The translations under genes and the position numbers were made by a program. The notes beneath the pieces were generated by a model, which was not told where the DNA came from, did not search any database, and saw only the letters and a list, made by a program, of their open reading frames with translations. A DNA stretch of 64,000 bases from Candidatus Daviesbacteria bacterium (GTDB lineage Bacteria; Patescibacteriota; Microgenomatia; Daviesbacterales; UBA10151), in contig JACPDA010000004.1 in the NCBI GenBank assembly GCA_016184225.1, forward strand, positions 134,800 through 198,799, in the 5' to 3' direction. Within the stretch, counting starts at the first letter, position 1; every line of letters begins with the position of its first letter. Below are positions 53 through 62,924 of this stretch, in pieces.

Positions 53-937
53 TTGGTTGGGTTTAAAAAGAATGTGGAGTTGCAGATGAATAGCATAATA
101 GGAATTTTCAATTTAGTTTTTTTGGGGCCGATCATTAATATTTTAGTTTTAATTTACCAGGGGCTTTCTGCCATCCATATCCCGGGTGCTTTGGGCTTTT
201 CGATAATCATTCTGACGGTTTTGATAAGGATTTTAGTTTGGCCTTTTATGTCCTCTCAAATTAAGGCCACCAAAAAAATGGCTGAGTTAAAGCCGCACCT
301 GGACGAGTTAAAAGGGAAACATAAAGGAGACAAACAAGCTTTGGCTTCTGCCCAGATGGCTTTATACAAAGAACATGGAGTTAATCCGGCCGGCGGTTGT
401 TTGCCGGCCATAATTCAAATTCCGGTATTTATTGGTCTTTACCAAGCCATAATTAATATCCTGCCAGGACCCGGCGGGAACATAAACCATATAAATTCGC
501 TGCTGTATTTTCCTCAGTTGAAACTCCCTTCTGCCTTAGATCCAAATTTTCTCGGACTTAATTTAGGCATTAAGCCCTCTGAATTTGGAAAATTTGGGTT
601 TTTACTTTTGTTAGTACCACTGGTGACTGCCCTTTTGACTTTTGTGCAATCTAAAATGACTTTGCTAAAACCTGTTAAGCACTACCCAACTGACTCTCCC
701 AAAGAAGCAAAAGAGAAAGAAGGATTGGAAGAAAGCATGGGAGCAGTTCAATCCCAGATGGTTTATTTAATGCCGATAATGATTGGCTATTTTGCCTTTA
801 CTTTTCCCATCGGGCTTGCAATTTATTGGAATACCTATACAATACTGGGGATTATTCAGCAGCATCGGATTTCTGGTTGGGGAGGATTGGAGAGTCTAGT
901 GGCTAGAGTCAAGAGTCAAGTGATTTCTAGATTCTAG
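53..937 (+). CDS. yidC: Membrane protein insertase YidC/Oxa1 family (short form)
   Basis: 294 aa, multi-TM. Conserved YidC core reads KEHGVNPAGGCLPAIIQIPVFIGLYQAI. Followed by a jag-like gene as in the canonical yidC-jag pair. The 3' end and stop lie inside a TCTAGA-type tandem repeat. Confidence 0.85.
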   Translation: MVGFKKNVELQMNSIIGIFNLVFLGPIINILVLIYQGLSAIHIPGALGFSIIILTVLIRILVWPFMSSQIKATKKMAELKPHLDELKGKHKGDKQALASAQMALYKEHGVNPAGGCLPAIIQIPVFIGLYQAIINILPGPGGNINHINSLLYFPQLKLPSALDPNFLGLNLGIKPSEFGKFGFLLLLVPLVTALLTFVQSKMTLLKPVKHYPTDSPKEAKEKEGLEESMGAVQSQMVYLMPIMIGYFAFTFPIGLAIYWNTYTILGIIQQHRISGWGGLESLVARVKSQVISRF

Positions 938-958
938 ATTCTAGACTCTAGACTCTAG
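926..958. repeat. TCTAGA-type hexamer tandem repeat spanning the yidC stop
   Basis: TCTAGATTCTAGATTCTAGACTCTAGACTCTAG. Confidence 0.8.
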
Positions 959-1583: not shown

Positions 1584-2816
1584 ATGTTAATTCGTTTAGA
1601 GAGGGTACTCTTATTTTTAGTTGTACTTTTCCTTCCGACCCAGCTTGGGTTACATTTTTGGCCTGGTTTCTCCTTTATTTATTCCTTAAAAATAGACTAT
1701 TTATCCCCCACCTTATATTTCTGGGATCTTTTAGTGGTCGGGCTTTTGTTGGTATGGATTCTGAGAAAGCCTAAGGTTAACAAAGTAGCGCTAAATCTTT
1801 TTTTATTTTTTTTATTAACCCTGGGAGCATCTTTATTGGGCGCTGCTAATATAGGAGCAGGGTTGGTAAGGTTGGAACAATATATGCTGGCTGGTTTTTT
1901 TGGCATCTTTCTGGCCTCGCAAGATCTTAAGAGTTTACTGGGGAAAATTTATTTACCGCTTGTTCTGGGAATTATTGGAGAATCTTTACTGGCCATCTTG
2001 CAAGTGATTAAAGGTGAGACTTTAGGCCTTTGGATTTTAGGGGAAAGAACTTTTAGTCTTTCAACTCCGGGGATTGCCAAGTTTGATTTTTATGGCTGGC
2101 AGTTTTTGCGGCCTTATGGCACATTTCCTCATCCCAATGCCCTGGCAGGATTTATGCTGGTTGCTGTAATTCTGGTGTCATTCTGGGGAGCAAAGCGGGC
2201 CAGAATGACATTACTGATAACAACAGTGTTGGCTGGTTTAACTATTTTCCTGACTGTGTCTAGAACCGCTATTTTAGCAGGATTTATTATATTTGTTGTT
2301 TTATTAAAAAGAAAATGGCTGATTTTTGTAACAATCATAACTTTTATACTCTCCCCTGTTCTTTTTACCAGGTTTTTTAGTCTTTTGAATTTTGATAATT
2401 TGACTTTGCTTAGACGGGAAGAGTTGGTAGGAACTGCCTGGCAAATATTCTTAAAACATCCAGTTTTCGGGGTGGGTCTAAATAATTTTATCCCTACTGT
2501 AGCTTCGGATTTAACAGTCGGCCCCAGCAGATTTTTGCAGCCGGTCCACAATATCTTTTTGTTATCTTTATCCGAGACAGGATTAATTGGTCTGATAGGA
2601 CTAATAAGTCTAATAGGATTTCCGATCTTCAGATTTTTAAAACTACACCCTATACCCTACACCCTATACCCTTGGCTTATTATTATTTTCCTGGGAATGT
2701 TTGACCATTATTTTTTAACTTTGCCCCAAGGGTACAGGTTACTTTTCTTGGTATGGGGGCTATCTTTTTCTCCCCGATTAAATCGGGGTTCCATGATAAA
2801 ATATTCCCGTGAGTAA
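1584..2816 (+). CDS. O-antigen ligase-like (Wzy_C/WaaL family) polytopic membrane protein
   Basis: 410 aa, about 10 predicted TM segments. Central loop with the VSRTAILAGFIIFVVLL region is typical of the O-antigen ligase family. Contains an in-frame heptamer repeat (ACCCTAT/ACCCTAC) at 2643-2671. Confidence 0.6.
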   Translation: MLIRLERVLLFLVVLFLPTQLGLHFWPGFSFIYSLKIDYLSPTLYFWDLLVVGLLLVWILRKPKVNKVALNLFLFFLLTLGASLLGAANIGAGLVRLEQYMLAGFFGIFLASQDLKSLLGKIYLPLVLGIIGESLLAILQVIKGETLGLWILGERTFSLSTPGIAKFDFYGWQFLRPYGTFPHPNALAGFMLVAVILVSFWGAKRARMTLLITTVLAGLTIFLTVSRTAILAGFIIFVVLLKRKWLIFVTIITFILSPVLFTRFFSLLNFDNLTLLRREELVGTAWQIFLKHPVFGVGLNNFIPTVASDLTVGPSRFLQPVHNIFLLSLSETGLIGLIGLISLIGFPIFRFLKLHPIPYTLYPWLIIIFLGMFDHYFLTLPQGYRLLFLVWGLSFSPRLNRGSMIKYSRE

Positions 2817-4032
2817 ATTCACAAAAATCTTTCAGCAGACTTTTTGGCAGATTTTGGGTAAAGTTGTGACAACTCTGTCCACTTTTATTATCTTAGGGTT
2901 AGTCACCAGAAATTATGGTAAGGATGGCACCGGAGTTTTTACTCTGGCTCTAACCTATTTATCCATGTTTTATTTGGTGGCGGATTTTGGTTTTAATGCA
3001 CATGTTCTAAGAAAGGTTACAGGGTACAGGGTACAGGGTACAGGGTACAGGGTACAGAAGCAATGGAATAAATTATTGGGGACAAGGTTGATATGGTCCG
3101 GGGTGCTGGTGGTTTTAGCAGTTGGGTTACTGCCCTTTTGGCCGTTTAGTACACCATTGTTTGTAAAAGCTGTTTCTTTTGGCAGCCTGGCAATTATTGC
3201 CTCATCAGTATTTGTGACATGTAACTTAATCTTTCAAGGCAAGCTTAGGTATGACTTATCTGTTTTGGCATCGGCTTTGGGAACCCTGGCAGGGCTGGCT
3301 GTGTTTGTGTTTTTATCTGCATATAAATTTTCCATCCCTTTTTTACTGCTTGCGCATTTGATTAGCTGGACTGTTATTGCAGCTGCTGCGCTTTTTTTGG
3401 TCAGGAAATTTTTTCAGCAAATTTTTCCCGTCTTTGATCTAATATATGCCAAGAATTTATTTAAACAGTCATGGCCAATTGCGGCAACACTCTCTTTGAA
3501 TGTTTTATATTTCCGGGCAGATGCTTTTATGATTGCTTACTTTAAGTCTGTTTCGGACGTTGGAATCTATAACGTCGCTTATTCAGTTTTCCAATCAGCC
3601 CTGGTTTTGCCTACCTTTATTATGAATGCGTATTATCCTTTGATGTTAAAAACTCTTCATGGCTTGAAATGGATACTCTTAGGACTCTTAGGACTCTCTT
3701 TGCTGGGGACCCTTATAACTCTAATTTTTTCACCCTTCATTATTAAAATCTTGACCGGAGGTGGATTTGCCGGATCAACAGAAAGTTTACAAATTCTTTC
3801 TTTAGGTTTTCCGGCCTATTTTTTATCATCACTTTTGATGTGGATTTTAATTGCTAAAGGCAAATATAAAGTCATGTTTTTGCTTTACATGTCAGGGTTA
3901 ATTTTTAACTTAATTTTGAATTTTATTTATATACCTCAGTATTCATTTTTGGCAGCTTCCTGGACTACGGTTATCTCCGAGTACTTTATTTTAGCGCTGC
4001 AGGTTATGGTATTATGGCTTAAACGAAAATGA
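2809..4032 (+). CDS. Polysaccharide biosynthesis flippase (MOP/Wzx-like) membrane protein
   Basis: 407 aa, roughly 12-14 TM helices, polysaccharide_synth-like architecture, downstream of a ligase-like gene. Contains GGGTACA x5 in frame, read as GYRVQGTGYRVQ. Confidence 0.6.
   Translation: MSKFTKIFQQTFWQILGKVVTTLSTFIILGLVTRNYGKDGTGVFTLALTYLSMFYLVADFGFNAHVLRKVTGYRVQGTGYRVQKQWNKLLGTRLIWSGVLVVLAVGLLPFWPFSTPLFVKAVSFGSLAIIASSVFVTCNLIFQGKLRYDLSVLASALGTLAGLAVFVFLSAYKFSIPFLLLAHLISWTVIAAAALFLVRKFFQQIFPVFDLIYAKNLFKQSWPIAATLSLNVLYFRADAFMIAYFKSVSDVGIYNVAYSVFQSALVLPTFIMNAYYPLMLKTLHGLKWILLGLLGLSLLGTLITLIFSPFIIKILTGGGFAGSTESLQILSLGFPAYFLSSLLMWILIAKGKYKVMFLLYMSGLIFNLILNFIYIPQYSFLAASWTTVISEYFILALQVMVLWLKRK
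3015..3057. repeat. GGGTACA heptamer x5-6 in-frame in the flippase gene
   Basis: GGTTACAGGGTACAGGGTACAGGGTACAGGGTACAGGGTACAG, read as GYRVQGTGYRVQ. Confidence 0.85.
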
Positions 4033-13723: not shown

Positions 13724-14818
13724 TCAATAGGCCAGTGAAAGGTTGGGGTCAGCCTGGAAGGTTAAAGGATTAACTGGGTTGTAGTTAAATATGGCGGCAG
13801 TAGCAATCATGGCAGCATTGTCAGTACATAAATTTGCACTGGGAATGCGCAAGTTAATCGTTAATCGTTTAAGATCGTCAGATTGCAAGCTCTGCTTATC
13901 GTTTATCGTTTTTTTAAACTCAGAAACAAGTTTTTGGTTGGCAGCCACACCGCCGGCTACTATAATTTGCTTAATTTTATACTTTTGGACAGCTTGAATA
14001 GTTTTGGCAACTAATACATCAACAATAGCTTGTTCAATGGCAGCAGCTAAATCGCATTTCACCTTCGAGGTGTAGCTTCTTTTTTTCACCTCGAAGGTGT
14101 GGATTAAGTTTGCTACTGCTGTTTTTAAACCGGAAAAGGAAAAGTCAAAGTCTTTGGAGTTGATCATGGGTCTAGGCAGATCAAACTTTGAGGCGTCTCC
14201 ACGTGTGGCTAACTTAGCAATCTCCGAGCCTCCGGGGTAAGGTAGGCCTAAAAGTCTGGCACATTTGTCAAAACATTCCCCGGCTGCATCATCTCTGGTG
14301 CCACCCAGATATTCATACTTACCATGGTTTTTAAAAAGTACAAGATCAGTATGGCCACCGGAAACCAGCAGGCCCAGGCAGGGGAATTTTGGAATTACAC
14401 CTTCCAGGTGGTGTTGCGCCTGCGGCACACCTGGAAGGTGATCTGTAATCCAATTAGCGTAAAAGTGTCCGATCAGGTGGTTAATGGGAATTAGAGGCTT
14501 ACTCCAGATTGTAGCCAGAACTTTGGCAGTTTCAACTCCAACTAAGAGGGAGCCGATTAATCCCGGTCCATAAGTTACAGCGATGGCGTCGATATCCTGT
14601 TGCCTGTGGCCTGAAGCCTGCAAACTTTCTTCTATTACCGGAATAATAGCTTTAATTTGTTCCCGGGCAGCCTGTTCAGGAATGACGCCGCCATATTTAG
14701 CCTGTAAGCTAGCCGAGGATGCTACCACATTGGACAAAATCCTTACTCCGCTTTCGGTCTTTTGTACTACTGCAGCTGCTGTTTCATCACAAGAAGTTTC
14801 TATCCCAAGTATTATCAT
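13724..14818 (-). CDS. tsaD: tRNA N6-adenosine threonylcarbamoyltransferase TsaD (Kae1/Gcp)
   Basis: N-terminus MIILGIETSCDETAAAV. ASKHA fold and metal-binding histidines (HLIGHFYAN). Carries in-frame repeat insertions (palindrome CACCTTCGAGGTG...CACCTCGAAGGTG at ~14077-14105; TAATCGTT repeats at ~13858-13905). Confidence 0.85.
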   Translation of the reverse strand: MIILGIETSCDETAAAVVQKTESGVRILSNVVASSASLQAKYGGVIPEQAAREQIKAIIPVIEESLQASGHRQQDIDAIAVTYGPGLIGSLLVGVETAKVLATIWSKPLIPINHLIGHFYANWITDHLPGVPQAQHHLEGVIPKFPCLGLLVSGGHTDLVLFKNHGKYEYLGGTRDDAAGECFDKCARLLGLPYPGGSEIAKLATRGDASKFDLPRPMINSKDFDFSFSGLKTAVANLIHTFEVKKRSYTSKVKCDLAAAIEQAIVDVLVAKTIQAVQKYKIKQIIVAGGVAANQKLVSEFKKTINDKQSLQSDDLKRLTINLRIPSANLCTDNAAMIATAAIFNYNPVNPLTFQADPNLSLAY

Positions 14819-20986: not shown

Positions 20987-21220
20987 ACCCTAATTATACA
21001 CCAGTTATAAAGTTTTCCACAAGGTAGGCTAGGTTGCGAATAACCTTAAGTCGCAGACTATTTCAGCTTTTTAGCCTCAGAAATAGTATAAAATCCGCAG
21101 GCCTGCCCTGAGTGAAATCGAAGGGTATCAATACAAATCCTCCTGGGAGTCATTTAGACTCCCGTCCTTCGGACCCCCAAGGGTGGAAATTCCAACAAGT
21201 ATTTATGGTATCATCTGTGC

Positions 21221-23554: not shown

Positions 23555-23575
23555 TTTAGGGTATAATTGACAAAG
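23555..23575. promoter_or_regulatory. Shared 20-mer TTAGGGTATAATTGACAAAG in a divergent promoter region (second copy at 33356-33375)
   Basis: Identical 20-mer at two bidirectional intergenic regions. On the minus strand it supplies a TTGTCA -35-like box, a 17-nt spacer and TACAAT just upstream of the vanW ATG. Both downstream plus-strand genes start ATTAATGAAAAAG. Confidence 0.5.
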
Positions 23576-23589
23576 GAGCTATCAGCCTT

Positions 23590-23653
23590 CAGTCATCAGT
23601 CGTCAGACAATTTGTTTTCTAGTCTGATAGCTGACAGCTGAAGACTGACGACT
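23590..23653. repeat. Palindromic GTCGTCAGAC/GTCTGACGAC-type repeat in the 5' leader of the SBP gene
   Basis: CAGTCATCAGTCGTCAGAC ... GTCTGATAGCTGACAGCTGAAGACTGACGACT. The same unit recurs in-frame in sbcD at 44930-44956. Confidence 0.7.
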
Positions 23654-23657
23654 ATTA

Positions 23658-24944
23658 ATGAAAAAGATCATTATTATTGTTTTGAGTTTAAGTGTTGTTT
23701 TAGGATTCCTCTTTTGGAAATTCGGGCCGAGCATCTCCCTTTTTAATAAACCAAAACCAGAAGGGCCGACAACCTTAACTTATTGGGGCCTTTGGGAAGA
23801 CGGTAATTTGATCAAGCCGGTAATTGCCGAGTACCAAAAGCAACATCCGAATATTTCCATTACTTATGAGCGTAAATCATCAGTCAATTATAGAACTAGG
23901 GCTCAGGCTCAAATTAGGGAAGGAGTGGGGCCGGATATTTTCCGGATTCACAATTCCTGGTTACCGATGTTCCAATCTGATTTAGCCAGCGCTCCTCAAG
24001 AGGTATTTAGCACTGATGAGTACAAGAGAATGTTTTATCCGGTAGCCTCGGAGAGTTTCATTAAAGGCGATCAAATTTATGGTGCCCCTATGGAAATAGA
24101 TGGTCTGGCTCTTTTTTACAACGAGGAGATGTTGGCTGCGATCGGTGGCAAGCCGCCTAAAAACTGGCAGGAATTTATAGATTATGCGACTAAAATGACG
24201 GTTCGGGATGCCACCGGCATTAAAACTGCCGGGGCAGCTCTGGGAACCGCCGGCAATGTTGATCATTGGTCGGATATTTTAGGGCTACTGCTGTTGCAAC
24301 AACCTGGAGTGGATTTTAACAATGTGGCAACGCCGCAGGTAGCAGAAGTGATCAGATTTTATACCGGTTTTGTGACTGATCCAAAGAAAAAAACCTGGGA
24401 TGTTAATCTACCTAAATCTACTGATATGTTCGCCGCCGGAAGATTAGGCTTCTACTTTGCTCCTTCTTGGAAGGCGCATGAGTTGCGGGTAGCCAACCCC
24501 GGCTTAAAATTTAAAGTAGCGCCAGCGCCGCAGCTATCCGGTAAGACTGCAGGTTGGGCGACATTTTGGGGCGAGGTAGTCTCTAGCAAATCCCAAAATC
24601 CAACAGAAGCCTGGAAATTTGTTAAATACTTAGTATCTGCCGAGGCTGAAAAATTGGCTTACCAGGAAGCTGCAAAGATCAGGTTGTTTGGAGAGCCGTA
24701 TTCCCTGGTCAGCTTACAAGGTGAGTTGGCAGGGGATCCGGTGGTGGGAGCTTTTGTCAGCCAGGGACCGATTTATAAAAGCTGGTATTTATCATCCAAT
24801 ACTTTTGACGGAGGCATCAACGATGAAATGATTAAATATTGGGAAGATGGGATTAATGCTACCTTAGCCGGGACAGATCCAATGGCAGCTTTGCAAACTG
24901 TTAATCAGGGGGTCAAGCAGGTGTTGGATAAATATAAGCAATAA
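23658..24944 (+). CDS. ABC transporter substrate-binding protein (family 1, sugar-type)
   Basis: 428 aa. N-terminal signal/TM; SBP_bac_1-like pattern along its length. No permease or ATPase gene adjacent in the window. Confidence 0.65.
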   Translation: MKKIIIIVLSLSVVLGFLFWKFGPSISLFNKPKPEGPTTLTYWGLWEDGNLIKPVIAEYQKQHPNISITYERKSSVNYRTRAQAQIREGVGPDIFRIHNSWLPMFQSDLASAPQEVFSTDEYKRMFYPVASESFIKGDQIYGAPMEIDGLALFYNEEMLAAIGGKPPKNWQEFIDYATKMTVRDATGIKTAGAALGTAGNVDHWSDILGLLLLQQPGVDFNNVATPQVAEVIRFYTGFVTDPKKKTWDVNLPKSTDMFAAGRLGFYFAPSWKAHELRVANPGLKFKVAPAPQLSGKTAGWATFWGEVVSSKSQNPTEAWKFVKYLVSAEAEKLAYQEAAKIRLFGEPYSLVSLQGELAGDPVVGAFVSQGPIYKSWYLSSNTFDGGINDEMIKYWEDGINATLAGTDPMAALQTVNQGVKQVLDKYKQ

Positions 24945-27241: not shown

Positions 27242-28210
27242 ATGGAAAAAGCGATATTAAAAACACTTATTTATGCCGATATTTTTGATTATCCCTTAAA
27301 AATTAACGAAATCCAGAAATGGCTAATAGGTAAAAAAGCAACACTTAGACAGGTTGAATCGGCCATAAGCCGGTTAGTTAAAAATTCCAAGTTAAAAGTT
27401 CAAAGCGGTCATTATTTTTTGCCGGGGAAAACGGGTTTAGTGATGCAAAGAAAACGCCGGGAGAATCAGTCTGTTGAGTATTTCCGAAAAGCAAATATGC
27501 TCTGCCAAATTTTAAAAATTATCCCCTGGGTTAAATTGACAGGAATCTCCGGAGGCTTAGCTTTAGGTAATGCTTCTAAAAAAGATGACATAGATCTTTT
27601 TATCGTTACTGCCAGAAATCGCTTGTGGATTTCCCGCCTGCTGGCTTTAGGTGTATTGTCTCTGACGGGGCAAAGAAGAAAAGTTGGGGAAATGGGTAGA
27701 AAGATTGCCGGAAAGTTGTGTATTAATATTTTACTCGAAGAAGATAGATTAGAGCAAGAGAGTAAAGATATCTTTGTTGCACATGAGTTGTTACAGATGA
27801 AGGTTTTATGGCAAAGAGATGGGATTTATGTAAAGTATCTGGGAGACAATTCCTGGGCCTTTGAGTTTTTACCAAATTGGGTGGGTGTTGGGACAGTTCG
27901 TTTGGTCGCAAAAAAACGTTCGTACGGTAGAGACTTACTCACTTGTGAGGATTTTGTGAAAAGCCATGATAGTAAATCATTGAGTCAATCAGCACAAAAT
28001 CCTCAACATTTTTTGATTGACTCAAACTTCACTGTCCTTATTTGTGATTTATTAGAAAAACTGGCTAAATGGTGGCAGCTAAAGATCATGCAGGAGCCAC
28101 AAGGGATGGAGCGGATAGAAGATGGGGCGCTTTATTTTCACCCGCAGGACTGTAGGCTGCGGATTCTTTCTGAATACCAGCGGCGGATTAAAAAACTTAG
28201 CACCCCTTGA
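27242..28210 (+). CDS. Nucleotidyltransferase-domain protein (Pol beta superfamily), hypothetical
   Basis: NTase motif GISGGLALGNASKKDDIDLFIV (G[SG]x9-13 DxD). Contains an in-frame copy of the 1474-1563 hairpin repeat at 27947-28015. Confidence 0.5.
   Translation: MEKAILKTLIYADIFDYPLKINEIQKWLIGKKATLRQVESAISRLVKNSKLKVQSGHYFLPGKTGLVMQRKRRENQSVEYFRKANMLCQILKIIPWVKLTGISGGLALGNASKKDDIDLFIVTARNRLWISRLLALGVLSLTGQRRKVGEMGRKIAGKLCINILLEEDRLEQESKDIFVAHELLQMKVLWQRDGIYVKYLGDNSWAFEFLPNWVGVGTVRLVAKKRSYGRDLLTCEDFVKSHDSKSLSQSAQNPQHFLIDSNFTVLICDLLEKLAKWWQLKIMQEPQGMERIEDGALYFHPQDCRLRILSEYQRRIKKLSTP
27947..28015. repeat. In-frame hairpin insertion (GAGGATTTTGTG ... CACAAAATCCTC) in the nucleotidyltransferase CDS; copy of the intergenic repeat at 1474-1563
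   Basis: 12-bp perfect inverted repeat. Flanking CTCACTTGTGAG and GCACAAAATCCTCAACATTTTTTG match 1474-1551. Reads as LLTCEDFVKSHDSKSLSQSAQNPQHFL. Confidence 0.75.
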
Positions 28211-33355: not shown

Positions 33356-33375
33356 TTAGGGTATAATTGACAAAG
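33356..33375. promoter_or_regulatory. Second copy of the TTAGGGTATAATTGACAAAG promoter-region 20-mer
   Basis: Identical to 23556-23575. Sits in the divergent M23 / PEGA-protein intergenic region, followed by ATTAATGAAAAAG at the start of the downstream gene. Confidence 0.5.
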
Positions 33376-33394
33376 TGAGTAGAGGGATCTATTA

Positions 33395-34198
33395 ATGAAA
33401 AAGCTTATTCTCTGGTTTCTAGTACTGATTAGTTTTGTGGCTTTACTACTTCGTTTTAGCGATAGGGCAGCAGAAATCTTTTTAGGTATTAAACAGACGA
33501 GCGGTATTTCTGTTTTATCAGAACCAGCGCAGGCTGTGGTTTTCTTAAACGAAAAAGAAGCAGGCACCACACCCTATGAAGATAAAAATCTGGCAGCGGG
33601 TGATTATGTGGTTAAAATTACAAAAGGGAAAGCTTCTTGGCAAGGTAGGGTTAAGCTGACTCCCGGGACCGTGACTGTCATAAACAGGGATTTAGCAGAA
33701 GATATGGCATCTTCAGCCGGAGAGATCCTCACGTTAAATAGAGGTAAGGGTTTGACCGTCATTTCTAACCCAACAGGAGCGGCAGTAGAAGTAGATGGGA
33801 AATCTTATGGCAGTACACCGATTACAGTTAATGTTGAAATAGGGCAGCATACTATTTTGGTAAGCCACACAAATTACCTAAAAAGGAGCATCAGGGCAGA
33901 TTTGCCAAATAATTTTAACTTAACAGTTTCGGTAAATTTAGCTCTTTCCGAGGCTGATTTGAGTACTACCATAACCTCCGTAATCACTGTTACTCCGGAA
34001 GTGGTGGTTAGGCAAACTCCCACAGGGTTTTTGCGGGTTAGAGATAAAGCATCATTGAATGGAAAGGAAATTGCCCAGGTAAAACCAGGGGATACGCTGA
34101 TACTTTTAGAAGAACAAGGAGCATGGGATCGGATACGATTGTCTGACGGGACAGAAGGTTTTGTTTCTTCCGCATATGTTGAAAAGAAAAATCCTTAA
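33395..34198 (+). CDS. PEGA-domain (x2) + SH3b-domain secreted/membrane-anchored protein
   Basis: N-terminal TM. Two PEGA-like repeats (PAQAVVFLNEKEAGTTPYED; PTGAAVEVDGKSYGSTPIT). C-terminal SH3_3-like region GFLRVRDKASLNGKEIAQVKPGDTLILLEE. Confidence 0.65.
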   Translation: MKKLILWFLVLISFVALLLRFSDRAAEIFLGIKQTSGISVLSEPAQAVVFLNEKEAGTTPYEDKNLAAGDYVVKITKGKASWQGRVKLTPGTVTVINRDLAEDMASSAGEILTLNRGKGLTVISNPTGAAVEVDGKSYGSTPITVNVEIGQHTILVSHTNYLKRSIRADLPNNFNLTVSVNLALSEADLSTTITSVITVTPEVVVRQTPTGFLRVRDKASLNGKEIAQVKPGDTLILLEEQGAWDRIRLSDGTEGFVSSAYVEKKNP

Positions 34199-39509: not shown

Positions 39510-40400
39510 TCAGAAAGCAAATATTTTCTTAGCGTTTGTGCTGGTTTGTTCTGCTACTTCTGCAAATGATATTCCTTTTAAATCGGCAATAAGCTCCGCA
39601 ATTTCTTTAACCGCCGAGGGTTCGTTTCGCTGGCCTCTTTTACCTTGGGGAGCTAAAAAGGGACAATCTGTTTCCAGTAGAATTTTGTTAAGCGGAAGAA
39701 TTTTAGCAGCTTCTCTTAAGTATTCATTCTTGGGATAGGTGATATTGGCTGCAAAAGAAACGAATAAGTTGGTAGCAGGTAGTAGGTAGCTGGTAGTATG
39801 GGGAAGCCCACTATAACAATGTAAGATGGCAGGTTGGTCGCCGACCATTTTCAGCGCTTCATTCCAAGCCTCGGAGTTGGTGGGGTTTTTTGACCGGTCA
39901 TCCCGGCAATGAATAACTGCCGGCAGATTTAGTTTTTTTGCCAAATCAATGTGAGCCTGAAAAAGCATCCTTTGTAAATCTTTAACCTGTTGGGTGGTAA
40001 TAGAAGGTGGAATGAATCCGGGATTGCTTTCAAAAAAGAAGTCCAGGCCACACTCACCTATACCTACAACTCTTTCAGGATTGCTGCGGTAGATTTTTTC
40101 CAGTTGTGCAATATCTTTTGCCAGATCATTTTGCACATTTGACCCACGGTCGGAGGGCATTTGTGATTGTGAATATTTGGTAGATTCATGTGGGTGAATG
40201 CCGATGGTGGAATAAACTGATAAACCTGCCGGCCACTTAGTGTTTGTGGCTTGGTCCAAAGCCTTTTGACTTGTTTCAACATCCACGCCGATATTGATGA
40301 TTGTAGAAACTCCGGCATCAACAGCCCTTTGAATCATTTCATAAAAATCCTCTTTGTATGAATCCCAGTAAAGATGGGCATGTGTGTCAATTAAATTCAT
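39510..40400 (-). CDS. tatD: TatD family hydrolase (Mg-dependent DNase)
   Basis: N-terminal IDTHAHL; HxH/metal ligands throughout. Contains an in-frame GGTAGNN tandem repeat at 39771-39801. Confidence 0.85.
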   Translation of the reverse strand: MNLIDTHAHLYWDSYKEDFYEMIQRAVDAGVSTIINIGVDVETSQKALDQATNTKWPAGLSVYSTIGIHPHESTKYSQSQMPSDRGSNVQNDLAKDIAQLEKIYRSNPERVVGIGECGLDFFFESNPGFIPPSITTQQVKDLQRMLFQAHIDLAKKLNLPAVIHCRDDRSKNPTNSEAWNEALKMVGDQPAILHCYSGLPHTTSYLLPATNLFVSFAANITYPKNEYLREAAKILPLNKILLETDCPFLAPQGKRGQRNEPSAVKEIAELIADLKGISFAEVAEQTSTNAKKIFAF

Positions 40401-42341: not shown

Positions 42342-44528
42342 TTAAACCCCAACCACCTCAAAAGTAGAACCTCCTGAGTTCTTGGAAACCTCAATTCTGA
42401 CCGGGAATTCTTCTTTTAACTCTTCTATATGAGTAATCACTAAAATCTTTTCAAAATCATTTTTAATGGCATCTATTGCTTCTATTAACCTGGCTCTCCC
42501 TGGTGCATCTTGAGATCCAAATCCTTCATCAATGACCAAAAATTGTAATTTTGCCCCGGCCCGGTGGGTCAGCAGTTTGGAAATGGCCAGCCGGATACAA
42601 AAATTAACCCGGAAAGCCTCACCTCCCGAGTACATCTCATAAGGCCGCTCACCCATCTCATCAGAAATAATGATGTCTAGTGTTTCTATAATGCCTTTTT
42701 CACCGCCGGCAAGTTTAGTTTTGGTTTCCTTTTGGGTTTCGAAACTGACTTTCATACGGCCTTCGGTAAGCTTTTCCAGCAATTTATTTGTTTCATCCTC
42801 AATTTCCGGGATGGCTGCTTCTATAATCATGGCCTGGATGCCTTTTTTGCCGAATGCCAAAGCCAGCTCTTCAAAAGTTTCTCTTTCCTCCGTTAGGGTA
42901 ATTTTTTCTGCTGACTTTTGTTTCGAGAGATTTTCCATTTGGGCTGTCCGGGAAATTAATTCATTAATCTGTCCCAAAATTCCGCGGGCCGCTTTTTCTT
43001 CTTCACGGATACCGGTAAGTTGATTTTCCGTACCGGTGATTTCCTGGTTTAAATTAATAATTTTTTCTGATAAATCAGGTAGTTTAGTTAATTCCTCCGA
43101 TATTCTATCAACCTGCAACTTTTTATTTTGAAACAGGATCCTCATTTCTAAAACTACTTTTTCCTCTGTTTGCAAAGTGGCTTGAATTGTTAGCTTTTCA
43201 TCATTTTGTTTTTGGATTTCTTCTGAATCCTTAAGTTGCAACAGGATTTGTTGGTATTTTTCAGAATCAAAATAGATGGCTTTTAATTGATTTTCTAAAT
43301 CAGCAATTGTTTGTTCTTCCTTGAAAAAATTAATTTTCTGGAGATCTTTTTTCAGATTTGTGATTTGGGTTGTTAATTGACTGTGCACATGTGATTTTTC
43401 AGCTTTGCCGATTTCCTGTCCGCAAGTCGGACATTTGGCTCCTGTTTTTGATGATGCACTAAGTTGGGCAGTCAGTTTATCTATTTCTTTTTGGATGCTT
43501 TGTGTCTGTTGTTTTTTGACATTAATTTCTCCGTTTGTAACGGATAATTTATTTTTTATTTCCAGTTGTTCATGTCTGATTTTATCCATTTTTTCTTTTT
43601 CCAGTTGCAGGGATTTTAAATTCTGCAATTGCCCGCTGACTTCCTGTAATTTTTGGAGTTGTAGCCCAAGAGAGTCAATTTTACTTTTGCGGTTTTTTCC
43701 CTGAGTGATGATTTCTTCTAATTCTTTTTTATTTTCCAAATAATTTTGCTCTAATTTTTTTCTTTGTTCTGAAGCCAAATTTAGTGCTTCCCGCTCCTCC
43801 CGCAAGGTTTTTAACCTTTCTTCTGAGGCTTTAATTTGTGTTTCAACTTCGGTAATTTTATTTTCGGCTGCCTTTTTCTTTGCTGAACGGTCTTCTTTTT
43901 GGGACAACTCCGCTTCTATTTCCAGGAGTTGATAATCCAGCAGTTGCAGTTTTGTCAGCGCTGCCTTGCTTTTTTCTTTGGCTTTTTCCTCTAAGAGATC
44001 GTAGTGATCTAAGCCTAAAATATCGGCCAAAATCTTTTTCCGCTCAGTCGGGCCTTTGGTGGTAAATTCATCAGCATGGCCTTGACGAAGATATGCAGAG
44101 TTGGTAAATGTCTCAAAGCTTAAATGCAGGGCATCTATTATTTTTTGTTGGGTAGCTTTGATGGTGCCTTCTGTCAGATTATGTCCTGAGCGAACAGAGT
44201 GAGTTGAAGGATTACTACTCCAGAATTCCAGCGCTGTTTGACCGCCGCCTTTTGTTGAACGACTTCTTTTAATAGTAAAGTTATGGCCGTCCAGCTCGAA
44301 TTCAAACTCAGCAGACATATTAACTGCACTTGCATGGATCAGGCTGTCGGAAGAATCCCCGGCCCGGGAAGTACCCCAAATGCACCAGGTGATAGCATCA
44401 AGCAAAGATGACTTACCGGCGCCGTTGAGCCCGGAAATGGCAGCCAGCTTAAATTTTGTAAAATCCAGCTCAGGTGGGCTTTGACCGTAACTTGTAAAAT
44501 TGGATAATGTTAGTTTAACCGGTATCAT
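42342..44528 (-). CDS. sbcC: SbcC/Rad50-family ATPase
   Basis: Walker A ISGLNGAGKSSLLDAI; long coiled coil; zinc hook CPTCGQ; C-terminal Walker B/D-loop FLVIDEGFGSQD. Confidence 0.85.
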   Translation of the reverse strand: MIPVKLTLSNFTSYGQSPPELDFTKFKLAAISGLNGAGKSSLLDAITWCIWGTSRAGDSSDSLIHASAVNMSAEFEFELDGHNFTIKRSRSTKGGGQTALEFWSSNPSTHSVRSGHNLTEGTIKATQQKIIDALHLSFETFTNSAYLRQGHADEFTTKGPTERKKILADILGLDHYDLLEEKAKEKSKAALTKLQLLDYQLLEIEAELSQKEDRSAKKKAAENKITEVETQIKASEERLKTLREEREALNLASEQRKKLEQNYLENKKELEEIITQGKNRKSKIDSLGLQLQKLQEVSGQLQNLKSLQLEKEKMDKIRHEQLEIKNKLSVTNGEINVKKQQTQSIQKEIDKLTAQLSASSKTGAKCPTCGQEIGKAEKSHVHSQLTTQITNLKKDLQKINFFKEEQTIADLENQLKAIYFDSEKYQQILLQLKDSEEIQKQNDEKLTIQATLQTEEKVVLEMRILFQNKKLQVDRISEELTKLPDLSEKIINLNQEITGTENQLTGIREEEKAARGILGQINELISRTAQMENLSKQKSAEKITLTEERETFEELALAFGKKGIQAMIIEAAIPEIEDETNKLLEKLTEGRMKVSFETQKETKTKLAGGEKGIIETLDIIISDEMGERPYEMYSGGEAFRVNFCIRLAISKLLTHRAGAKLQFLVIDEGFGSQDAPGRARLIEAIDAIKNDFEKILVITHIEELKEEFPVRIEVSKNSGGSTFEVVGV

Positions 44529-45727
44529 TATTCTAATAACTGGGCAGCATATTTTTCCAAAGCTTTTTGTTTTGTAACCGGATATTTTTTGGCTTCAAAA
44601 TATTTTTTTAAAGCGGCAATCGGAGTCAGGGTCTCCACATCCTTACCAAAATCTATTTTTTCCCGTTCCAGCCGTTCAACATTTCTGGAAATACCGGCCA
44701 CTAAATGGGCTAAAGAGAGAGCTTTTTTTATTTTATCCATCTCGATATCTTGATCCAGTCCGGCAGGGATATTAATGACTAGCCTGATAATTTTATCTGC
44801 CAGGTCGTGTTTTTTGATTTCATCCAGTATAGTTTGGGTGGGGTCAGGATCTGCACTTTTGAGGTTAACAGTGATAGTTAAAAACTGCCGGGCATTGGTA
44901 GAGATAAACTGATAACTTGTTTGATATTTGTCTGACGTCTGACGACTGACGACTGAAAGCTCTACTAAACAAATTCCTTTTTCCTCTTTTTCCTCCCCGA
45001 AATCTATCCGTTGTGGCGAGCCGGAATAAACAATTAATGGTCCGCCCGCTTCGCGAGGCGAGCCCGCCGGCGGATTGGAAAGAACTTGGTGTTTGTGGAT
45101 ATGGCCCAAGGCCACATAATTTAGCCTTTTGTCTTGTAGCAAGGGTAGGGGAAGGGTAATATCATTCCCAATTGCCAGACCTTTTTCACTTCCGAACTGC
45201 GCCCCCACTATTTCAGCATGGGACAGTAAAACAGCAGGGGAATCAGGAGTAATTTTGTCATAGAGTAATTTTAGTTTTTCAGCCACGGTTTTGTAGTCGT
45301 TTTTATGTAACCAGGGTAGGGTGACTACTTGTAAGTTTCCGGATTTGGTGGGAATTTGCAAAATTTCCGGATGTCTGGAAACCCAGACATTATCTATCTC
45401 CAAGGCTGAATAGATATCCAAAGTATTGGCTTTGCCTTCTGCATTGGGGGTGTCGTGATTTCCCACTACCAAAACAACAGGGATTTTTTTGGCCAGTTTA
45501 GCAATCCTTTCACCAAAACCCCGCTGTTGGGTGGGGTTGGGATCACGGGTTTTATAGGCATCACCGGCAAAGATCACTGCATCGACATTTTCTTTAAAAG
45601 CAGTTTCTACAATAAAATCAAAAGTATTGAAAAAATCCAGCAGCCTGGTGGAAAGTCCGGTTTCCGGATCCAATTTAGAGTAATTTTCCATGCCAATATG
45701 AAGGTCAGAAAAGTGAAGTAGTTTCAT
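44528..45727 (-). CDS. sbcD: SbcD/Mre11-family nuclease
   Basis: Calcineurin-like phosphoesterase motifs MKLLHFSDLHIG, GDAYK, GNHD, GHIH. Carries in-frame repeat insertions at 44930-44956 and 45030-45070. Confidence 0.85.
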   Translation of the reverse strand: MKLLHFSDLHIGMENYSKLDPETGLSTRLLDFFNTFDFIVETAFKENVDAVIFAGDAYKTRDPNPTQQRGFGERIAKLAKKIPVVLVVGNHDTPNAEGKANTLDIYSALEIDNVWVSRHPEILQIPTKSGNLQVVTLPWLHKNDYKTVAEKLKLLYDKITPDSPAVLLSHAEIVGAQFGSEKGLAIGNDITLPLPLLQDKRLNYVALGHIHKHQVLSNPPAGSPREAGGPLIVYSGSPQRIDFGEEKEEKGICLVELSVVSRQTSDKYQTSYQFISTNARQFLTITVNLKSADPDPTQTILDEIKKHDLADKIIRLVINIPAGLDQDIEMDKIKKALSLAHLVAGISRNVERLEREKIDFGKDVETLTPIAALKKYFEAKKYPVTKQKALEKYAAQLLE

Positions 45728-47509: not shown

Positions 47510-48031
47510 TTATTCCCGGTACAGCCAGAAATTATCTACTTTTTTAAATGGTTTCCAAGTTGAGAAATGGTAAGTTTGGGTGATCACCACAGTTCCCTTT
47601 TTGGTCTCTGTTTTTAGTCTCTCTTCCAGCCTTTTAACCCCTTTATGCAGCAGATAGATATAAATTACATCTGCATCTTTATATGTTTTGGAAAAGATAT
47701 TGCCATGGTAAAATTTTACCCTCCCAGACGTGGTCTGGGAAGCCTGGGAAGTTAATTTCAAGGCTTTGTATCTTGAATACGAAACACGTAGCCATGACTG
47801 CTCGATGCCAAAAGATTCTGCACCCAGTTTTGCTGCCTCAAAAACCACCCGGCCGTCACCTGACCCCAGTTCGTAAAATTTTTTACCCTTTTTAACACCA
47901 GCCAGTTTTAGGATTTTCCTGATTTGGTCCATTTTAGTTGGAACATATGGAGCATCAGATCCGGCAAACCAGGACAGGCTGATAAGACAACCCAGTAATA
48001 TGCCGGCCGAGATTATTAATGTAGTGTCCAT
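47510..48031 (-). CDS. Class I SAM-dependent methyltransferase
   Basis: Motif I FYELGSGDGRVVFEAA. Start chosen at the internal Met, overlapping the upstream stop as TAATG; the tool ORF extends to 48100. Confidence 0.65.
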   Translation of the reverse strand: MDTTLIISAGILLGCLISLSWFAGSDAPYVPTKMDQIRKILKLAGVKKGKKFYELGSGDGRVVFEAAKLGAESFGIEQSWLRVSYSRYKALKLTSQASQTTSGRVKFYHGNIFSKTYKDADVIYIYLLHKGVKRLEERLKTETKKGTVVITQTYHFSTWKPFKKVDNFWLYRE

Positions 48032-49059
48032 TATTTTCCCAGTAATTTTAACAGGAACACCTTGAGTGGAGTTAATTTGTCGATAACTGTAAACATCCAA
48101 TACACCGGCCAGTTAAAAACTAAATCATAAGTGCCAATATATTCGGTTAACTTTCCACCGTAACCTTGTTTAAATTTATGGAACCCGAACCAGGGATCTT
48201 TGGGGTCAGCGCTGGGACCCAATGCTCCCCACATGTCAAATTTCTTAAGCCCTAATTTTTGACCCAGTTTAATAGCCTCCCAAGCTACCAGATTATTTGC
48301 CATTACTTCAGGATGAATTTTAGAAGAACCACCGTAAGGGTAATAAAAAGTGTCTTTAAAATTTAGCAGCATCCAGGCAGTTAAGGGTATAGGGGTTAGG
48401 GTATAGGGTTTAGGGTAAAAGGCAATTAACAGTCTGGCCATGCCTGAACTTTTAAGTATTTTCCATACTTGGCGGTGATAATGTTCGTTGTGTCCGTGAT
48501 AACCTTGACGTTTAGTGGTTTCAAAATAAAGTTTTAGATAAATTTCAAAAGCCTCATCATCTGTACGTTCTTCAACTTTCACTCCGTGTTTCTGGGCTAT
48601 TTTGATGTTATATCTGGTTTTAGGGTGCAGATTTTTCAAAAGCTCCTCTTCTGATTTGGTTAGGTCTAATATAAAGTTGTACTTGGTAAATAATGGTTTA
48701 GGGGATTTTATAAATTCTTCTGTTGCCTGTAACCTGTTGCCTGTAACCTGTTCTATATCTGGCTCGACTTTAATAAAGGCACAATTGTTTTCTTTGCCAA
48801 TTTTTTTTAGGGCTACTGCTAATTCTTTATCCGGAAATGGGCCTTTTGGTAAGTATCCGACGTACTGATTAGTTAAGGGGATTTTATGTAAAGTTAACTG
48901 GAAAGCCTTTGATAATTTTCCGTTTTGGTAAATACCATATCTTAAAACCGGAATCCCTAAACTCTTTCTAAACTCCCCCCACTGCCAGGACTCTATAACA
49001 TGGGTAACTAATTTATTGTACTGTGATTTTTGATTGTCGCCAATCGGCCGTAAATCCAT
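48031..49059 (-). CDS. FemAB-family (GNAT-fold) peptidoglycan bridge-formation-like protein
   Basis: 342 aa. FemAB-like N-terminal region (WQWGEFRKSLG...YVGYLPKGP). Contains in-frame heptamer/11-mer repeats at 48381-48420 and 48721-48753. Confidence 0.6.
   Translation of the reverse strand: MDLRPIGDNQKSQYNKLVTHVIESWQWGEFRKSLGIPVLRYGIYQNGKLSKAFQLTLHKIPLTNQYVGYLPKGPFPDKELAVALKKIGKENNCAFIKVEPDIEQVTGNRLQATEEFIKSPKPLFTKYNFILDLTKSEEELLKNLHPKTRYNIKIAQKHGVKVEERTDDEAFEIYLKLYFETTKRQGYHGHNEHYHRQVWKILKSSGMARLLIAFYPKPYTLTPIPLTAWMLLNFKDTFYYPYGGSSKIHPEVMANNLVAWEAIKLGQKLGLKKFDMWGALGPSADPKDPWFGFHKFKQGYGGKLTEYIGTYDLVFNWPVYWMFTVIDKLTPLKVFLLKLLGK
48381..48420. repeat. TAGGGTA/TAGGGTT heptamer array in-frame in the FemAB-like gene
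   Basis: TTAAGGGTATAGGGGTTAGGGTATAGGGTTTAGGGTAAAA; minus-strand translation KPYTLTPIPLT. Confidence 0.8.
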
Positions 49060-56307: not shown

Positions 56308-56407
56308 TTACTAATTAACCTAATTGATCTAAATAATGACTAATGTCTAGTTTAGAAATTTAGTCATTGGGATTTGATTAGAAATTAGTAATTAAAAATT
56401 AGAAATT

Positions 56408-57076
56408 ATGAAGGATATTTGGATTATTGCTAACTGGAAAAGCAATAAAAATATTAGCGAGGCTTTAGACTGGATTTCCCAGGTTGGCCCGAAAATTCCT
56501 AAGCAGGATAATTTAAAAGTTGTGGTTTGTCCGACTTTTAGTGCTCTCTCGGAAGTTAAAAAAGCCATTACTGTGGGAAATTTTCCTCTTCTGGTGGGAG
56601 CACAGGATTTATCTCCATTTGGGATAGGTGCTTACACCGGGGAAGAGCCGGCAGAACTTTTAAACCAACTAATCACCTTAACGATTTTGGGACACTCTGA
56701 AAGGCGGCAAAATTTTAGAGAGTCCGATGAGACAATAGCGAAAAAGACACAGCAGGCATTGGGCAACAATATAACTCCACTGGTGTGTGTTCAAAACGAG
56801 GAGATACCGGTGCCTGAAGGTTGTAAACTGGTAGCCTATGAACCTATCTGGGCTATTGGTACCGGTAATCCGGATACTCCTGAGAACGCTAATGTTGTGG
56901 CGGAGAAAATAAAGCAACAGTATAGTGCCAGTATAGAAGTGGTTTATGGGGGGAGTGTTCATTCAGGCAATGTTAAAGATCTTGTTATGCAAGAAAATAT
57001 TAATGGAGTGTTAGTAGGTAGCGCTTCTTTGGATGCTGAGGAATTTATTAAGATATGTCAAGTTGTTTCGGAGTAA
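56408..57076 (+). CDS. tpiA: Triosephosphate isomerase
   Basis: Catalytic motifs NWK (Lys), GHSERR (His) and AYEPIWAIGTG (Glu). Confidence 0.85.
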   Translation: MKDIWIIANWKSNKNISEALDWISQVGPKIPKQDNLKVVVCPTFSALSEVKKAITVGNFPLLVGAQDLSPFGIGAYTGEEPAELLNQLITLTILGHSERRQNFRESDETIAKKTQQALGNNITPLVCVQNEEIPVPEGCKLVAYEPIWAIGTGNPDTPENANVVAEKIKQQYSASIEVVYGGSVHSGNVKDLVMQENINGVLVGSASLDAEEFIKICQVVSE

Positions 57077-58330: not shown

Positions 58331-58934
58331 TGCTTCCAGAAGGAAGCTTCAAGAATTAAAGAAAAAATTTAATCCGGAAAATATAGTGGTTTTTGATTCG
58401 GAGGCACAATCGGGACAGGTAATTGCCAGTTTAATGACTGTCCCAATGTTTTCTGAGCAGAGATTAATTATTTGGGAAAATCCTCCAGAAGGTTTTGTCT
58501 TAGACTCATCACTCATCACTCATCACTCATCACTCATCTTGTGGTTTGATTACGAAGTGGATACCAAGAAGTGGCCCCGGTTTGAGCCGCTATTTTTTCC
58601 CGAGGCTAAAGAAGTTTCAGTTTTTCCTTTTCTTGATTTTTTGGTAGCTAAAGATCAAAAAGCTTTTCTAGAAATGGAAAAATTAAAAACTGCTGGTTTT
58701 GATATCCATTACTGTCTGACGATGGTTTTTTATCTGCTGCGTAATTTAATTGTCACTCCTAAAAATGCCCCGGATTTTGTAAAAAAGAAGCTTATTAGAC
58801 AAAGAGCGGAATTTGACAGGGAAAAGATAACCAGGCTTTATAAAGATATCTTGGAAATTGACTTCAAAATGAAATCCGGCTTCTTAGAAAAACCCCAGGC
58901 AGAGTTTCTACTAATTAATAGGTTTCTGCGCTAA
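58296..58934 (+). CDS. Putative DNA polymerase III delta subunit (HolA-like), short
   Basis: 212 aa. Weak resemblance to the HolA N-domain (pattern LLHGPAINASRRKLQEL...MFSEQRLIIWENP). Contains an in-frame CATCACT x4 repeat (LITHHSSLI). Confidence 0.4.
   Translation: MMLQLLHGPAINASRRKLQELKKKFNPENIVVFDSEAQSGQVIASLMTVPMFSEQRLIIWENPPEGFVLDSSLITHHSSLILWFDYEVDTKKWPRFEPLFFPEAKEVSVFPFLDFLVAKDQKAFLEMEKLKTAGFDIHYCLTMVFYLLRNLIVTPKNAPDFVKKKLIRQRAEFDREKITRLYKDILEIDFKMKSGFLEKPQAEFLLINRFLR
58505..58538. repeat. CATCACT heptamer x4+ in-frame in the holA-like gene
   Basis: CTCATCACTCATCACTCATCACTCATCACTCATC. Confidence 0.8.
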
Positions 58935-62879: not shown

Positions 62880-62891
62880 GCCTTTATTATA

Positions 62892-62924
62892 CTAGGGTCT
62901 AGGGTTTAGGGTCTAGGGTGTAGG
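62892..62924. repeat. Telomere-like heptamer array (CTAGGGT/TTAGGGT/GTAGGGT) in the pilN-rpsT intergenic region
   Basis: CTAGGGTCTAGGGTTTAGGGTCTAGGGTGTAGG. Same TAGGGTN unit as at 48381-48420; reverse complement at 2643-2671. Confidence 0.8.

Follow-up and report, generated by a model that had tools for sequence, protein, structure and literature searches.

The 7-mer arrays of a 64,000-nucleotide (nt) stretch of a Candidatus Daviesbacteria genome (GenBank assembly GCA_016184225.1, contig JACPDA010000004.1, positions 134,800 to 198,799; hereafter the window) were analysed, the focal array being one within an O-antigen-ligase (Wzy_C) gene near the start of the window. With a probability of roughly 65%, these arrays are ordinary members of a class of short heptanucleotide microsatellites (~3.5-7 units) that runs through this genome and through its lineage, Candidatus Daviesbacteria and other Microgenomates, shaped by 7-nt-biased mutation together with selection. 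The TAGGGTN arrays that first drew attention are not special in kind; the window holds about 12 others of period 7, with unrelated units. TAGGGTN and GGGTAYA together are one recurrent G-rich unit type, unrelated to chromosome ends, that could in principle form G-quadruplexes.

The four arrays listed in an earlier first-pass annotation of the window (at 2643, 3014, 48380 and 62892) were all recovered by a check of the sequence and by Tandem Repeats Finder (Table 1). The same program returned approximately 16 period-7 arrays with unrelated units, those listed besides the four being AGAGTCA, TTCTAGA, GTTAATC, TTATCGT, ATCAGTC, AGTTAAA, AGTAGGT, CTGACGA, CCTGTAA, ATTAGAA, and ACTCATC. With at least 12 distinct units within 64 kb, there were no few dominant ones of the kind seen in the short tandemly repeated repetitive (STRR) sequences STRR1-3. 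In a period-specific scan, 14 period-7 regions were counted compared to 0.2 in dinucleotide shuffles, and periods 5, 6, and 8-12 were at or near shuffle expectation; 50 kb of Escherichia coli, scanned as a control, contained no arrays at any period.

The gene set of the window was typical of the Candidate Phyla Radiation (CPR) based upon Pfam assignments (Wzy_C, flippase, DUF4012, FemAB, VanW, PilN/PilO, and an intein-containing thioredoxin). Its class I aminoacyl-tRNA synthetase was 62-76% identical to those of metagenome-assembled genomes (MAGs) of Candidatus Daviesbacteria and other Microgenomates, with the closest loci belonging to Daviesbacteria. The window itself is part of a MAG, and its proteins are entered in NCBI as Candidatus Daviesbacteria. 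Across 29 related loci (577 kb), 71 period-7 arrays were found where 2.0 were expected, periods 4, 5, and 8-12 were near expectation, and period 6 had a much smaller excess (11 vs 0.7). Array density was uneven among these loci (0 to 8 per ~22 kb), and no period-7 arrays were found in the Anaerotruncus locus L037 or in the most distant relatives, L035 and L036. In each of four more Daviesbacteria loci, from a different genome region, between one and six period-7 arrays were counted, with no array of any other period. Confinement to the window, which the first-pass annotation had named as an outcome that would count against it, is therefore not the case; the arrays are general, and occur in other species and in independent assemblies.

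Units in the relatives comprised dozens of different sequences, and units within one mismatch of each other made up 9.2% of within-genome pairs and 7.9% of between-genome pairs. Genome-specific unit families, as expected from copy-and-paste spread, were rejected because unit similarity was no different within and between genomes. Three similar units among 12 arrays were likewise not accepted as special, since such a triple was commonly drawn when the relatives' pool was sampled, and hairpin pairing was rejected as a general role (an inverted partner was present for only 10 of 83 arrays, and 9 of 83 were self-complementary). Most of what a metagenome scan with the pattern (ACCCTAB)3ACCCT retrieved was long telomere-like arrays of the eukaryote type, several lying at the ends of contigs, and the scan added little on CPR; a few low-GC contigs were rich in mixed heptamer arrays. 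Among the contigs obtained through the ACCCTAB pattern, four from other, unclassified organisms (L064, L067, L073, and L124) had six short heptamer arrays each with differing units (among them TAGGGTG, CTCCTGA, CAACAAC, and AATTACG, the last with an inverted copy), the same many-unit pattern as above.

An origin of the arrays as assembly artefacts or eukaryotic telomere contamination is effectively refuted. This reading could draw upon the breakage of short-read contigs at perfect arrays, upon one contig end with a palindromic artefact, and upon the telomere-like arrays, several at contig ends, that dominated the metagenome scan. The arrays are, however, internal to a contig of ~770 kb and lie within intact conserved open reading frames (ORFs), they were recovered in independent assemblies and samples, and their orthologous sites were occupied in MAGs of other studies. 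At 23581 the window was 100% identical to Logan contigs from five samples, the array at 62892 was identical in one other sample, and the contig with the focal array was recorded in ten samples. The telomere likeness proposed in the first-pass annotation did not hold up either: the arrays in question are four of approximately 16, are mostly in genes, lie within a contig of 769,731 bp with none at a replicon end, and have 4-6 units with a variable seventh base, compared to 10-15 or more units in the telomere-like metagenome matches. No telomerase or end-binding protein was among the window Pfam hits obtained, which included no test aimed at them.

Orthologous sites were often occupied by arrays of another, species-specific unit, usually with a length of 4-5 units. 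In the flippase gene, the loop following FGFNAHVL was 42 nt long and without an array in L023, and 63 nt long with four units each in L040, L041, L042, and L006 (units GGGTACA, GGGTATA, GGTAACA, and AGAGTCN). The same loop in the window was 78 nt long, or six units plus one extra base, which is two units and 1 nt longer than in the four-unit orthologues. Across 119 orthologous proteins, the loop was 8 amino acids (aa) long in 19 and 15 aa long in 66; residue identity at lag 7 was 1.49 per loop compared to ~0.6 at other lags, and the peptides themselves were highly unlike (LKVQSEKLKV, IKNQKSKIKI, VTGNRLQVTG, GIGYRVQGIV). In the Wzy loop that holds the focal array, four CTAWACC units were present in the window, L042, L008, and L018, CTAAGAA units were present in L019, and no array was present in L023; PKPYxLxP-type peptides were found in dozens of orthologues, and lengths of the region fell into the classes 30/37 and 34/41. 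The loop of the DNA polymerase III delta-like (holA-like) gene had approximately five units at the same place in all five species (ACTCATC, CTACCAA, CCCTATA, or AACTGCA-like), with equal length in four and an inner insertion in L044. Arrays in the C-terminal loop of tsaD were found in ~10 species, mostly with AATT-core units and with peptides such as KLKIENLKLKI. Judged from these comparisons, arrays are long-lived at particular permissive sites, where units turn over in concert and length shifts are mostly by 21 nt.

Seven and three are coprime, and each cyclic trinucleotide of a unit is consequently read in frame once per three units. The first-pass statement that copy number keeps the frame was correct for net length, which is in frame, and incorrect for copy numbers, which were 2.3-6.3 in genes and not multiples of three. 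Phasing was visible in loop lengths that step by 7 aa (three heptamers) across ~120 orthologues; strict phasing of copy number was not supported, given the offset of the window flippase array from its four-unit orthologues. A 7-aa unit encoded by three heptamers had also been described, and the flippase peptide is in fact KVTGYRVQGTGYRVQK, in which six heptamers give two 7-aa units. In the L041 flippase, GGGTTCA replaced one GGGTATA exactly where an in-frame TAG would arise, in the window femAB array ACCCTAA was restricted to positions that do not place TAA in frame, and AAATTGA arrays in the tsaD genes of relatives contained TGA-avoiding variants. By our own reading of the loci, the C-rich strand of ACCCTAN arrays was the coding strand in five of six genes. 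The wobble position "N" of units inside genes is thus attributable to the editing out of stop-creating registers by point changes.

Within the window, 12 of 17 arrays were inside ORFs (nine genes) and all of these were translated without stops, so that the "mainly intergenic" placement of STRR-type repeats does not apply. The coding hosts were wzy, flippase, femAB (two arrays), tsaD (three), tatD, sbcD, the DNA polymerase III delta-like gene, a hypothetical gene, and the 3' end of yidC, and host genes were Pfam-supported. The five remaining arrays were at four loci (across the yidC stop, the 23581 pair, upstream of triosephosphate isomerase, and the rpsT-pilN spacer), and arrays per base were still over-represented in the small non-coding fraction of the window. 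The array region at the TsaD C-terminus corresponded to an alignment gap relative to E. coli TsaD (4ydu). Placement in coding regions, as given in the first-pass annotation, was right for the arrays at 2643, 3014, and 48380 and wrong for that at 62892, which lies in the spacer that separates rpsT from a pilN-like gene. Arrays are retained in spacers between genes and in permissive protein loops of the surface or linker type, essential proteins included.

Under the explanation favoured here, mutation with a built-in step of 7 nt would create the arrays and keep re-homogenising them, the simplest candidates being strand slippage or template switching in replication or repair. The steps that follow are shown by the data above. 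Selection sets which sites survive, with net length held to a multiple of three and most often changed by +21 nt (three units, or 7 aa). Point changes remove TAA, TAG, and TGA registers, a filter that favours the C-rich ACCCTAN strand as the coding one, and arrays at orthologous sites outlast species splits while their units turn over in concert. Mutation is the probable source of the periodicity because genes should tolerate in-frame units of 6 or 9 nt better, yet period 9 was at expectation and period 6 had only a small excess, and because intergenic arrays share the period of seven. High within-array identity at sites with strongly diverged orthologous units points to continuing homogenisation, which in essential genes presumably must keep length or move in 21-nt steps.

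Several points weigh against this explanation. The slippage step is itself something that we infer, and nothing in the data accounts for a step of 7 nt. Slippage by one unit would be lethal in essential genes, and the constant-length turnover in holA and flippase would need conversion-like or multi-unit events. No copy-number polymorphism was seen, and ongoing activity is deduced only from within-array identity set against diverged orthologues. This genome was sampled over 64 kb only. Finally, ACCCTAN-type units occurred at ~6 independent loci (wzy, femAB, the pilN spacer, uvrD in L045, tsaD in L019, and flippase in L041); by a rough estimate, this recurrence is above random-unit expectation and hints at a sequence preference beyond pure neutrality.

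A more active version, which is unlikely, is that the arrays in Microgenomates are not passive debris of slippage but products or targets of a lineage-specific replication or repair activity working in a 7-nt register, or that 7-nt periodicity is itself selected. Were this so, sites and copy numbers would be held in essential genes while every unit was rewritten, and the process would serve as an inbuilt source of 7-aa loop modules for CPR proteins and spacers.

It is improbable that a sequence-specific templated or mobile process (a mini-element, a nuclease or repair system, or an RNA-templated polymerase) copies preferred units, or that 7-nt periodicity is recognised and maintained. Such a process would fit the ~6 non-orthologous Daviesbacteria loci with ACCCTAN-type arrays, the occurrence of the same type in other heptamer-rich metagenome contigs, the VTGNRLQ-type units shared by the window femAB and the flippases of other species, and the retention of position and copy number while every unit changes. 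The hairpin at 23581 also resembles an insertion between a Shine-Dalgarno (SD) sequence and ATG, with CTAT on both sides. However, no shared flanks, terminal repeats, or associated gene were found, the dozens of units have no single template, and unit sharing within a genome was not above that between genomes; ordinary concerted evolution of tandem repeats suffices for unit turnover.

The G-rich arrays could alternatively be kept as G-quadruplex (G4) regulatory elements, in which at least four GGG tracts fold into a DNA or RNA G4 with an effect on transcription or translation, a role proposed for the GGGNATC repeats of Xanthomonas and the GGGGAYT repeats of Nostoc (PMC4692102). All four G-rich arrays, and only these, have at least four G3 tracts with short loops (4-5 GGG tracts with 4-nt loops). 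The window contained six G3N1-7 x4 motifs compared to 0.88 in shuffles, four of the six being these arrays; one array lies directly upstream of a conserved -10 box (62892), and Rehm et al. describe a like preference for ~four units and for inverted pairs (PMC4692102). Against this, ~12 of 16 window arrays and nearly all of those in relatives are non-G4 (TTCTAGA, ACTCATC, AAATTGA) with the same size and placement, and the preference for four units holds for non-G units too. G-rich units were swapped for non-G-rich ones at orthologous sites (GGTAACA and AGAGTCN in flippase, CTAAGAA in wzy), the G-rich side was mixed in strand relative to transcription, and the pilN spacer array was missing in two of five species with the promoter conserved regardless. 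Under-representation in coding sequence and location within 50 bp of ORF ends, as in the repeats of Rehm et al., were not observed, with three of the four G-rich arrays in genes. This reading is improbable; G4 formation may bias which units expand, but cannot account for the whole class.

Even less probable is a role as contingency loci, in which slippage of heptamer tracts would switch surface genes (wzy, flippase, femAB, and the pilus operon) in the manner of E. coli neuO, where a heptanucleotide tract lies in the 5' coding region (PMC13001214). In its favour, the four G-rich arrays are in or before cell-envelope genes, two arrays have perfect 5-unit tracts (3014 and 58504), and short-read contigs break at perfect tracts, which copy-number heterogeneity could also cause. 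Arrays were, however, found equally in housekeeping genes (tsaD, holA-like, sbcD, and tatD), for which switching off is implausible, and most were interrupted and of 3.5-6 units, far below known phase-variable tracts (3-53 units in neuO; PMC13001214). No length variants were seen at imperfect arrays in further samples or in 90% protein clusters, which lends no support to the contingency-like slippage raised in the first-pass annotation: the contig with the 2643 array was recorded in 10 samples, the sequence was identical at 23581 in five samples and at 62892 in one other, and six array-bearing proteins were the sole members of their own 90% identity clusters, though the exact proteins occurred on up to 11 contigs. 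Short-read contigs ended within both perfect arrays, so that this allele comparison covers imperfect arrays only. Logan assemblies are built from de Bruijn graphs with a short word size, which perfect repeats of 35-44 nt exceed, and contig breaks at these arrays are therefore expected anyway. One apparent length variant (P0009, a truncated holA-like protein) was rejected as a contig-end palindromic artefact inside the array.

The first-pass annotation had further proposed that the heptamer derives from, or seeds, a promoter 20-mer. This 20-mer, TTAGGGTATAATTGACAAAG, a promoter core in which TATAAT overlaps TTGACA, was indeed present in exactly two window copies, both on the + strand (0.01 matches in shuffles), and copy 1 reads TTGTCA-17-TACAAT on the reverse strand, facing a divergent VanW gene. 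TAGGGT/ACCCTA occurred 36 times in the window compared to 29.7 expected, with 10 of the 36 inside arrays, and in a Markov test over the window no hexamer of the TAGGGT family stood out. Among the relatives, GGTATAATTGA was confined to the orthologous site of L008 and a single occurrence in L021. As TAGGGT is not enriched outside arrays, and as the sole promoter-adjoining array is in the opposite orientation (CCCTAG-TATAAT at 62892, TAGGG-TATAAT in the 20-mer), the proposed derivation was not upheld, and the resemblance looks coincidental.

That array at 62892, the only one beside a -10 box, occupies the spacer and the -35 region immediately before the pilN-like -10 box (TAGACC-18-TATAAT), the promoter being of the form CTAGTATAAT-N6-ATG. 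CTAG-TATAAT-N6-ATG was conserved in five species, with the array present in the window, L044, and L045 and absent from L043 and L046, so that the array is dispensable for the promoter. TATAAT boxes 8-15 nt before start codons (first box base to start) were also seen at 20998, 27224, 31732, 45742, 50422, and 62891, and these short distances suggest that leaderless mRNAs are common in this organism.

Both 20-mer promoters (23556-23660 and 33356-33397) head homologous leaders composed of the 20-mer, a variable stretch, and then CTATTAATGAAAAAG. The copy-1 leader has a 65-nt hairpin between an AAGGAG Shine-Dalgarno sequence and ATG, with CTAT on both flanks; the hairpin, formed by a heptamer array and its inverted copy, had a predicted energy of -30.8 kcal/mol (z = -3.9). 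The aligned region of this leader was 87% identical to L008 (262-393), above the flanking genes, and the hairpin may therefore bring the SD and AUG together. Four of five Logan contigs for the 23658 gene (L001-L004) ended at window position 26734, which suggests a repeat or a strain-variable boundary.

Heptameric simple sequence repeats (SSRs) are over-represented in many bacteria, as summarised from Mazel et al. 1990 and Mrazek et al. 2007 in PMC4692102. As that summary describes them, cyanobacterial STRRs resemble the arrays here in being tandem, genome-dispersed 7-nt units with period 7 over-represented, in including some inverted hairpin-capable pairs, and in having polymerase slippage as the suspected cause. 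They differ in that the Daviesbacteria arrays belong to a small-genome CPR host, have dozens of units in place of a few dominant ones, are no longer than ~7 units, lie mostly in protein genes (essential ones included), and occupy orthologous sites with unit turnover. The G-rich heptamers of Xanthomonas and Nostoc (Rehm et al. 2015, PMC4692102) share G3N4 units, a preference for about four units, G4 compatibility, some positions near gene starts or stops, and differences in length and sequence between related species; in Daviesbacteria, by contrast, G-rich arrays are outnumbered by those with non-G units, of which there are many. E. coli neuO, with its AAGACTC tract, is likewise a surface-modification gene with a heptamer tract that leaves the frame intact only at particular lengths, translation requiring a repeat number divisible by three (PMC13001214). 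Its tracts, however, are perfect and vary within cultures (PMC13001214), whereas the Daviesbacteria arrays are short and mostly imperfect, did not vary among the samples seen, and also occur in housekeeping genes.

TAGGGTT is a rotation of the plant-type telomere unit TTTAGGG, but plant telomeres have hundreds of units, and the Daviesbacteria arrays are off replicon ends, have 4-5 units with a variable seventh base, and lie in bacterial genes. Ogata and colleagues reportedly described, in 2000, Rickettsia palindromic elements (RPEs) inserted in frame in protein genes. RPEs are similar in that DNA not derived from protein is tolerated in frame in permissive loops, and they differ in being dispersed copies of one long palindromic element, the Daviesbacteria arrays being local tandem repeats without a shared sequence. 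Daviesbacteria loops also host palindromic inserts: other in-frame inserts, some within the array, were seen in the Wzy loop of P0138, P0143, P0144, P0170, P0173, P0178, and L040, and their peptides (IPACAGMTV, NWYRFRS) resemble translated palindromic elements, reminiscent of RPEs.

The class is thus of a known kind, that of heptameric SSR excess, STRRs, G-rich heptamers, and neuO-type coding heptamers (PMC4692102, PMC13001214), and no description of heptamer repeats in CPR/Patescibacteria was found in the literature searched. It differs from these in its CPR host, its dozens of units, its short arrays, their residence mostly in protein loops including essential ones, and its orthologous sites with unit turnover. 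Heptanucleotide excess has been a documented puzzle of bacterial genomics since the cyanobacterial STRRs. The present lineage offers small gene-dense genomes in which period 7 is by far the most enriched, with only a small period-6 excess in relatives. Because arrays sit in universally conserved genes, orthologous array sites can be aligned across hundreds of MAGs, and the birth of arrays, their in-frame growth (+21 nt), the turnover of their units, and their decay could thereby be timed against protein divergence. The question "why seven?" also becomes approachable by comparative genomics, for example by comparing array richness with replication and repair gene content. In practice, such arrays break short-read assemblies, lengthen CPR protein loops, and may be misread as telomere-like or regulatory motifs.

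Table 1. Period-7 arrays, promoter elements, and the focal host gene in the window
Feature	Coordinates	Strand	Context
TTCTAGA x4.9 (self-complementary) adjoining AGAGTCA x2.3	905..958	+	Span stop codon of YidC-family gene 53-937
O-antigen-ligase/Wzy_C gene (host of focal array)	1584..2816		Focal array encodes LHPIPYTLYP in a loop between membrane segments
Focal array, (CTAYACC) x4.3, CTACACC/CTATACC	2643..2672	+	100% identical at period 14; reverse complement of TAGGGTR
1x GGTTACA then 5x GGGTACA (6.3 copies)	3014..3057	+	Flippase gene 2809-4032; peptide KVTGYRVQGTGYRVQK
GTTAATC x2.4 and TTATCGT x2.3	13853..13911	-	tsaD C-terminal loop; peptide KTINDKQSLQSDDLKRLTIN
CCTGNNG x3.5	14596..14620	-	tsaD; peptide QASGHRQQD
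20-mer copy 1	23556..23575	+	TATAAT overlapping TTGACA; 18/20 bases conserved in L008 upstream of orthologous gene
NTCAGNC x3.7 then own inverted copy	23581..23650	+	Hairpin in 5' untranslated region upstream of solute-binding-protein gene 23658-24944; conserved in L008
AGTTAAA-type x4.3	27376..27405	+	Hypothetical gene 27242-28210
20-mer copy 2	33356..33375	+	20 nt upstream of PEGA/SH3 gene 33395-34198
AGTAGGT/AGCAGGT x4.6	39767..39798	-	TatD-family gene 39510-40400
CTGACGA x3.6	44932..44956	-	sbcD gene 44528-45727
TAGGGKW x5.3 (+ strand)	48380..48417	-	FemAB-family gene 48031-49059; coding strand ACCCTAN, giving YPKPYTLTPIPLT
CTGTTGC/CTGTAAC, period 14, 100% identical	48720..48752	-	FemAB-family gene; peptide EQVTGNRLQATE
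ATTAGAA x4.6	56377..56408	+	Intergenic, directly upstream of triosephosphate isomerase gene; orthologous arrays in L043, L046
ACTCATC, 5 perfect units	58504..58538	+	DNA polymerase III delta-like (holA-like) gene 58296-58934; peptide DSSLITHHSSLI
TATAAT -10 box	62886..62891	-	6 nt before ATG of pilN-like gene 62301-62879; leaderless-type arrangement
NTAGGGT x4.7 (= ACCCTAR on - strand)	62892..62924	-	Intergenic, between rpsT and pilN-like gene

Some further features of the window were recorded. No known RNAs were returned from the window by Rfam (at gathering thresholds) or by a tRNA scan. A perfect period-8 array in a uvrD-like gene (52715-52748; ACACCGAC x4.2 as read on the coding strand) was the only clear one in the window with a period other than seven. 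GC skew was positive in nearly all 2-kb bins (3 of 32 were slightly negative), and the near-monotonic climb of cumulative skew across 1-64000 places the window on one replichore. The thioredoxin gene at 54356-55999 was split by an intein (Intein_splicing + Thioredoxin, 547 aa); an intein was also present in L046, and the orthologues in L043-L045 were intein-free at 85 aa.

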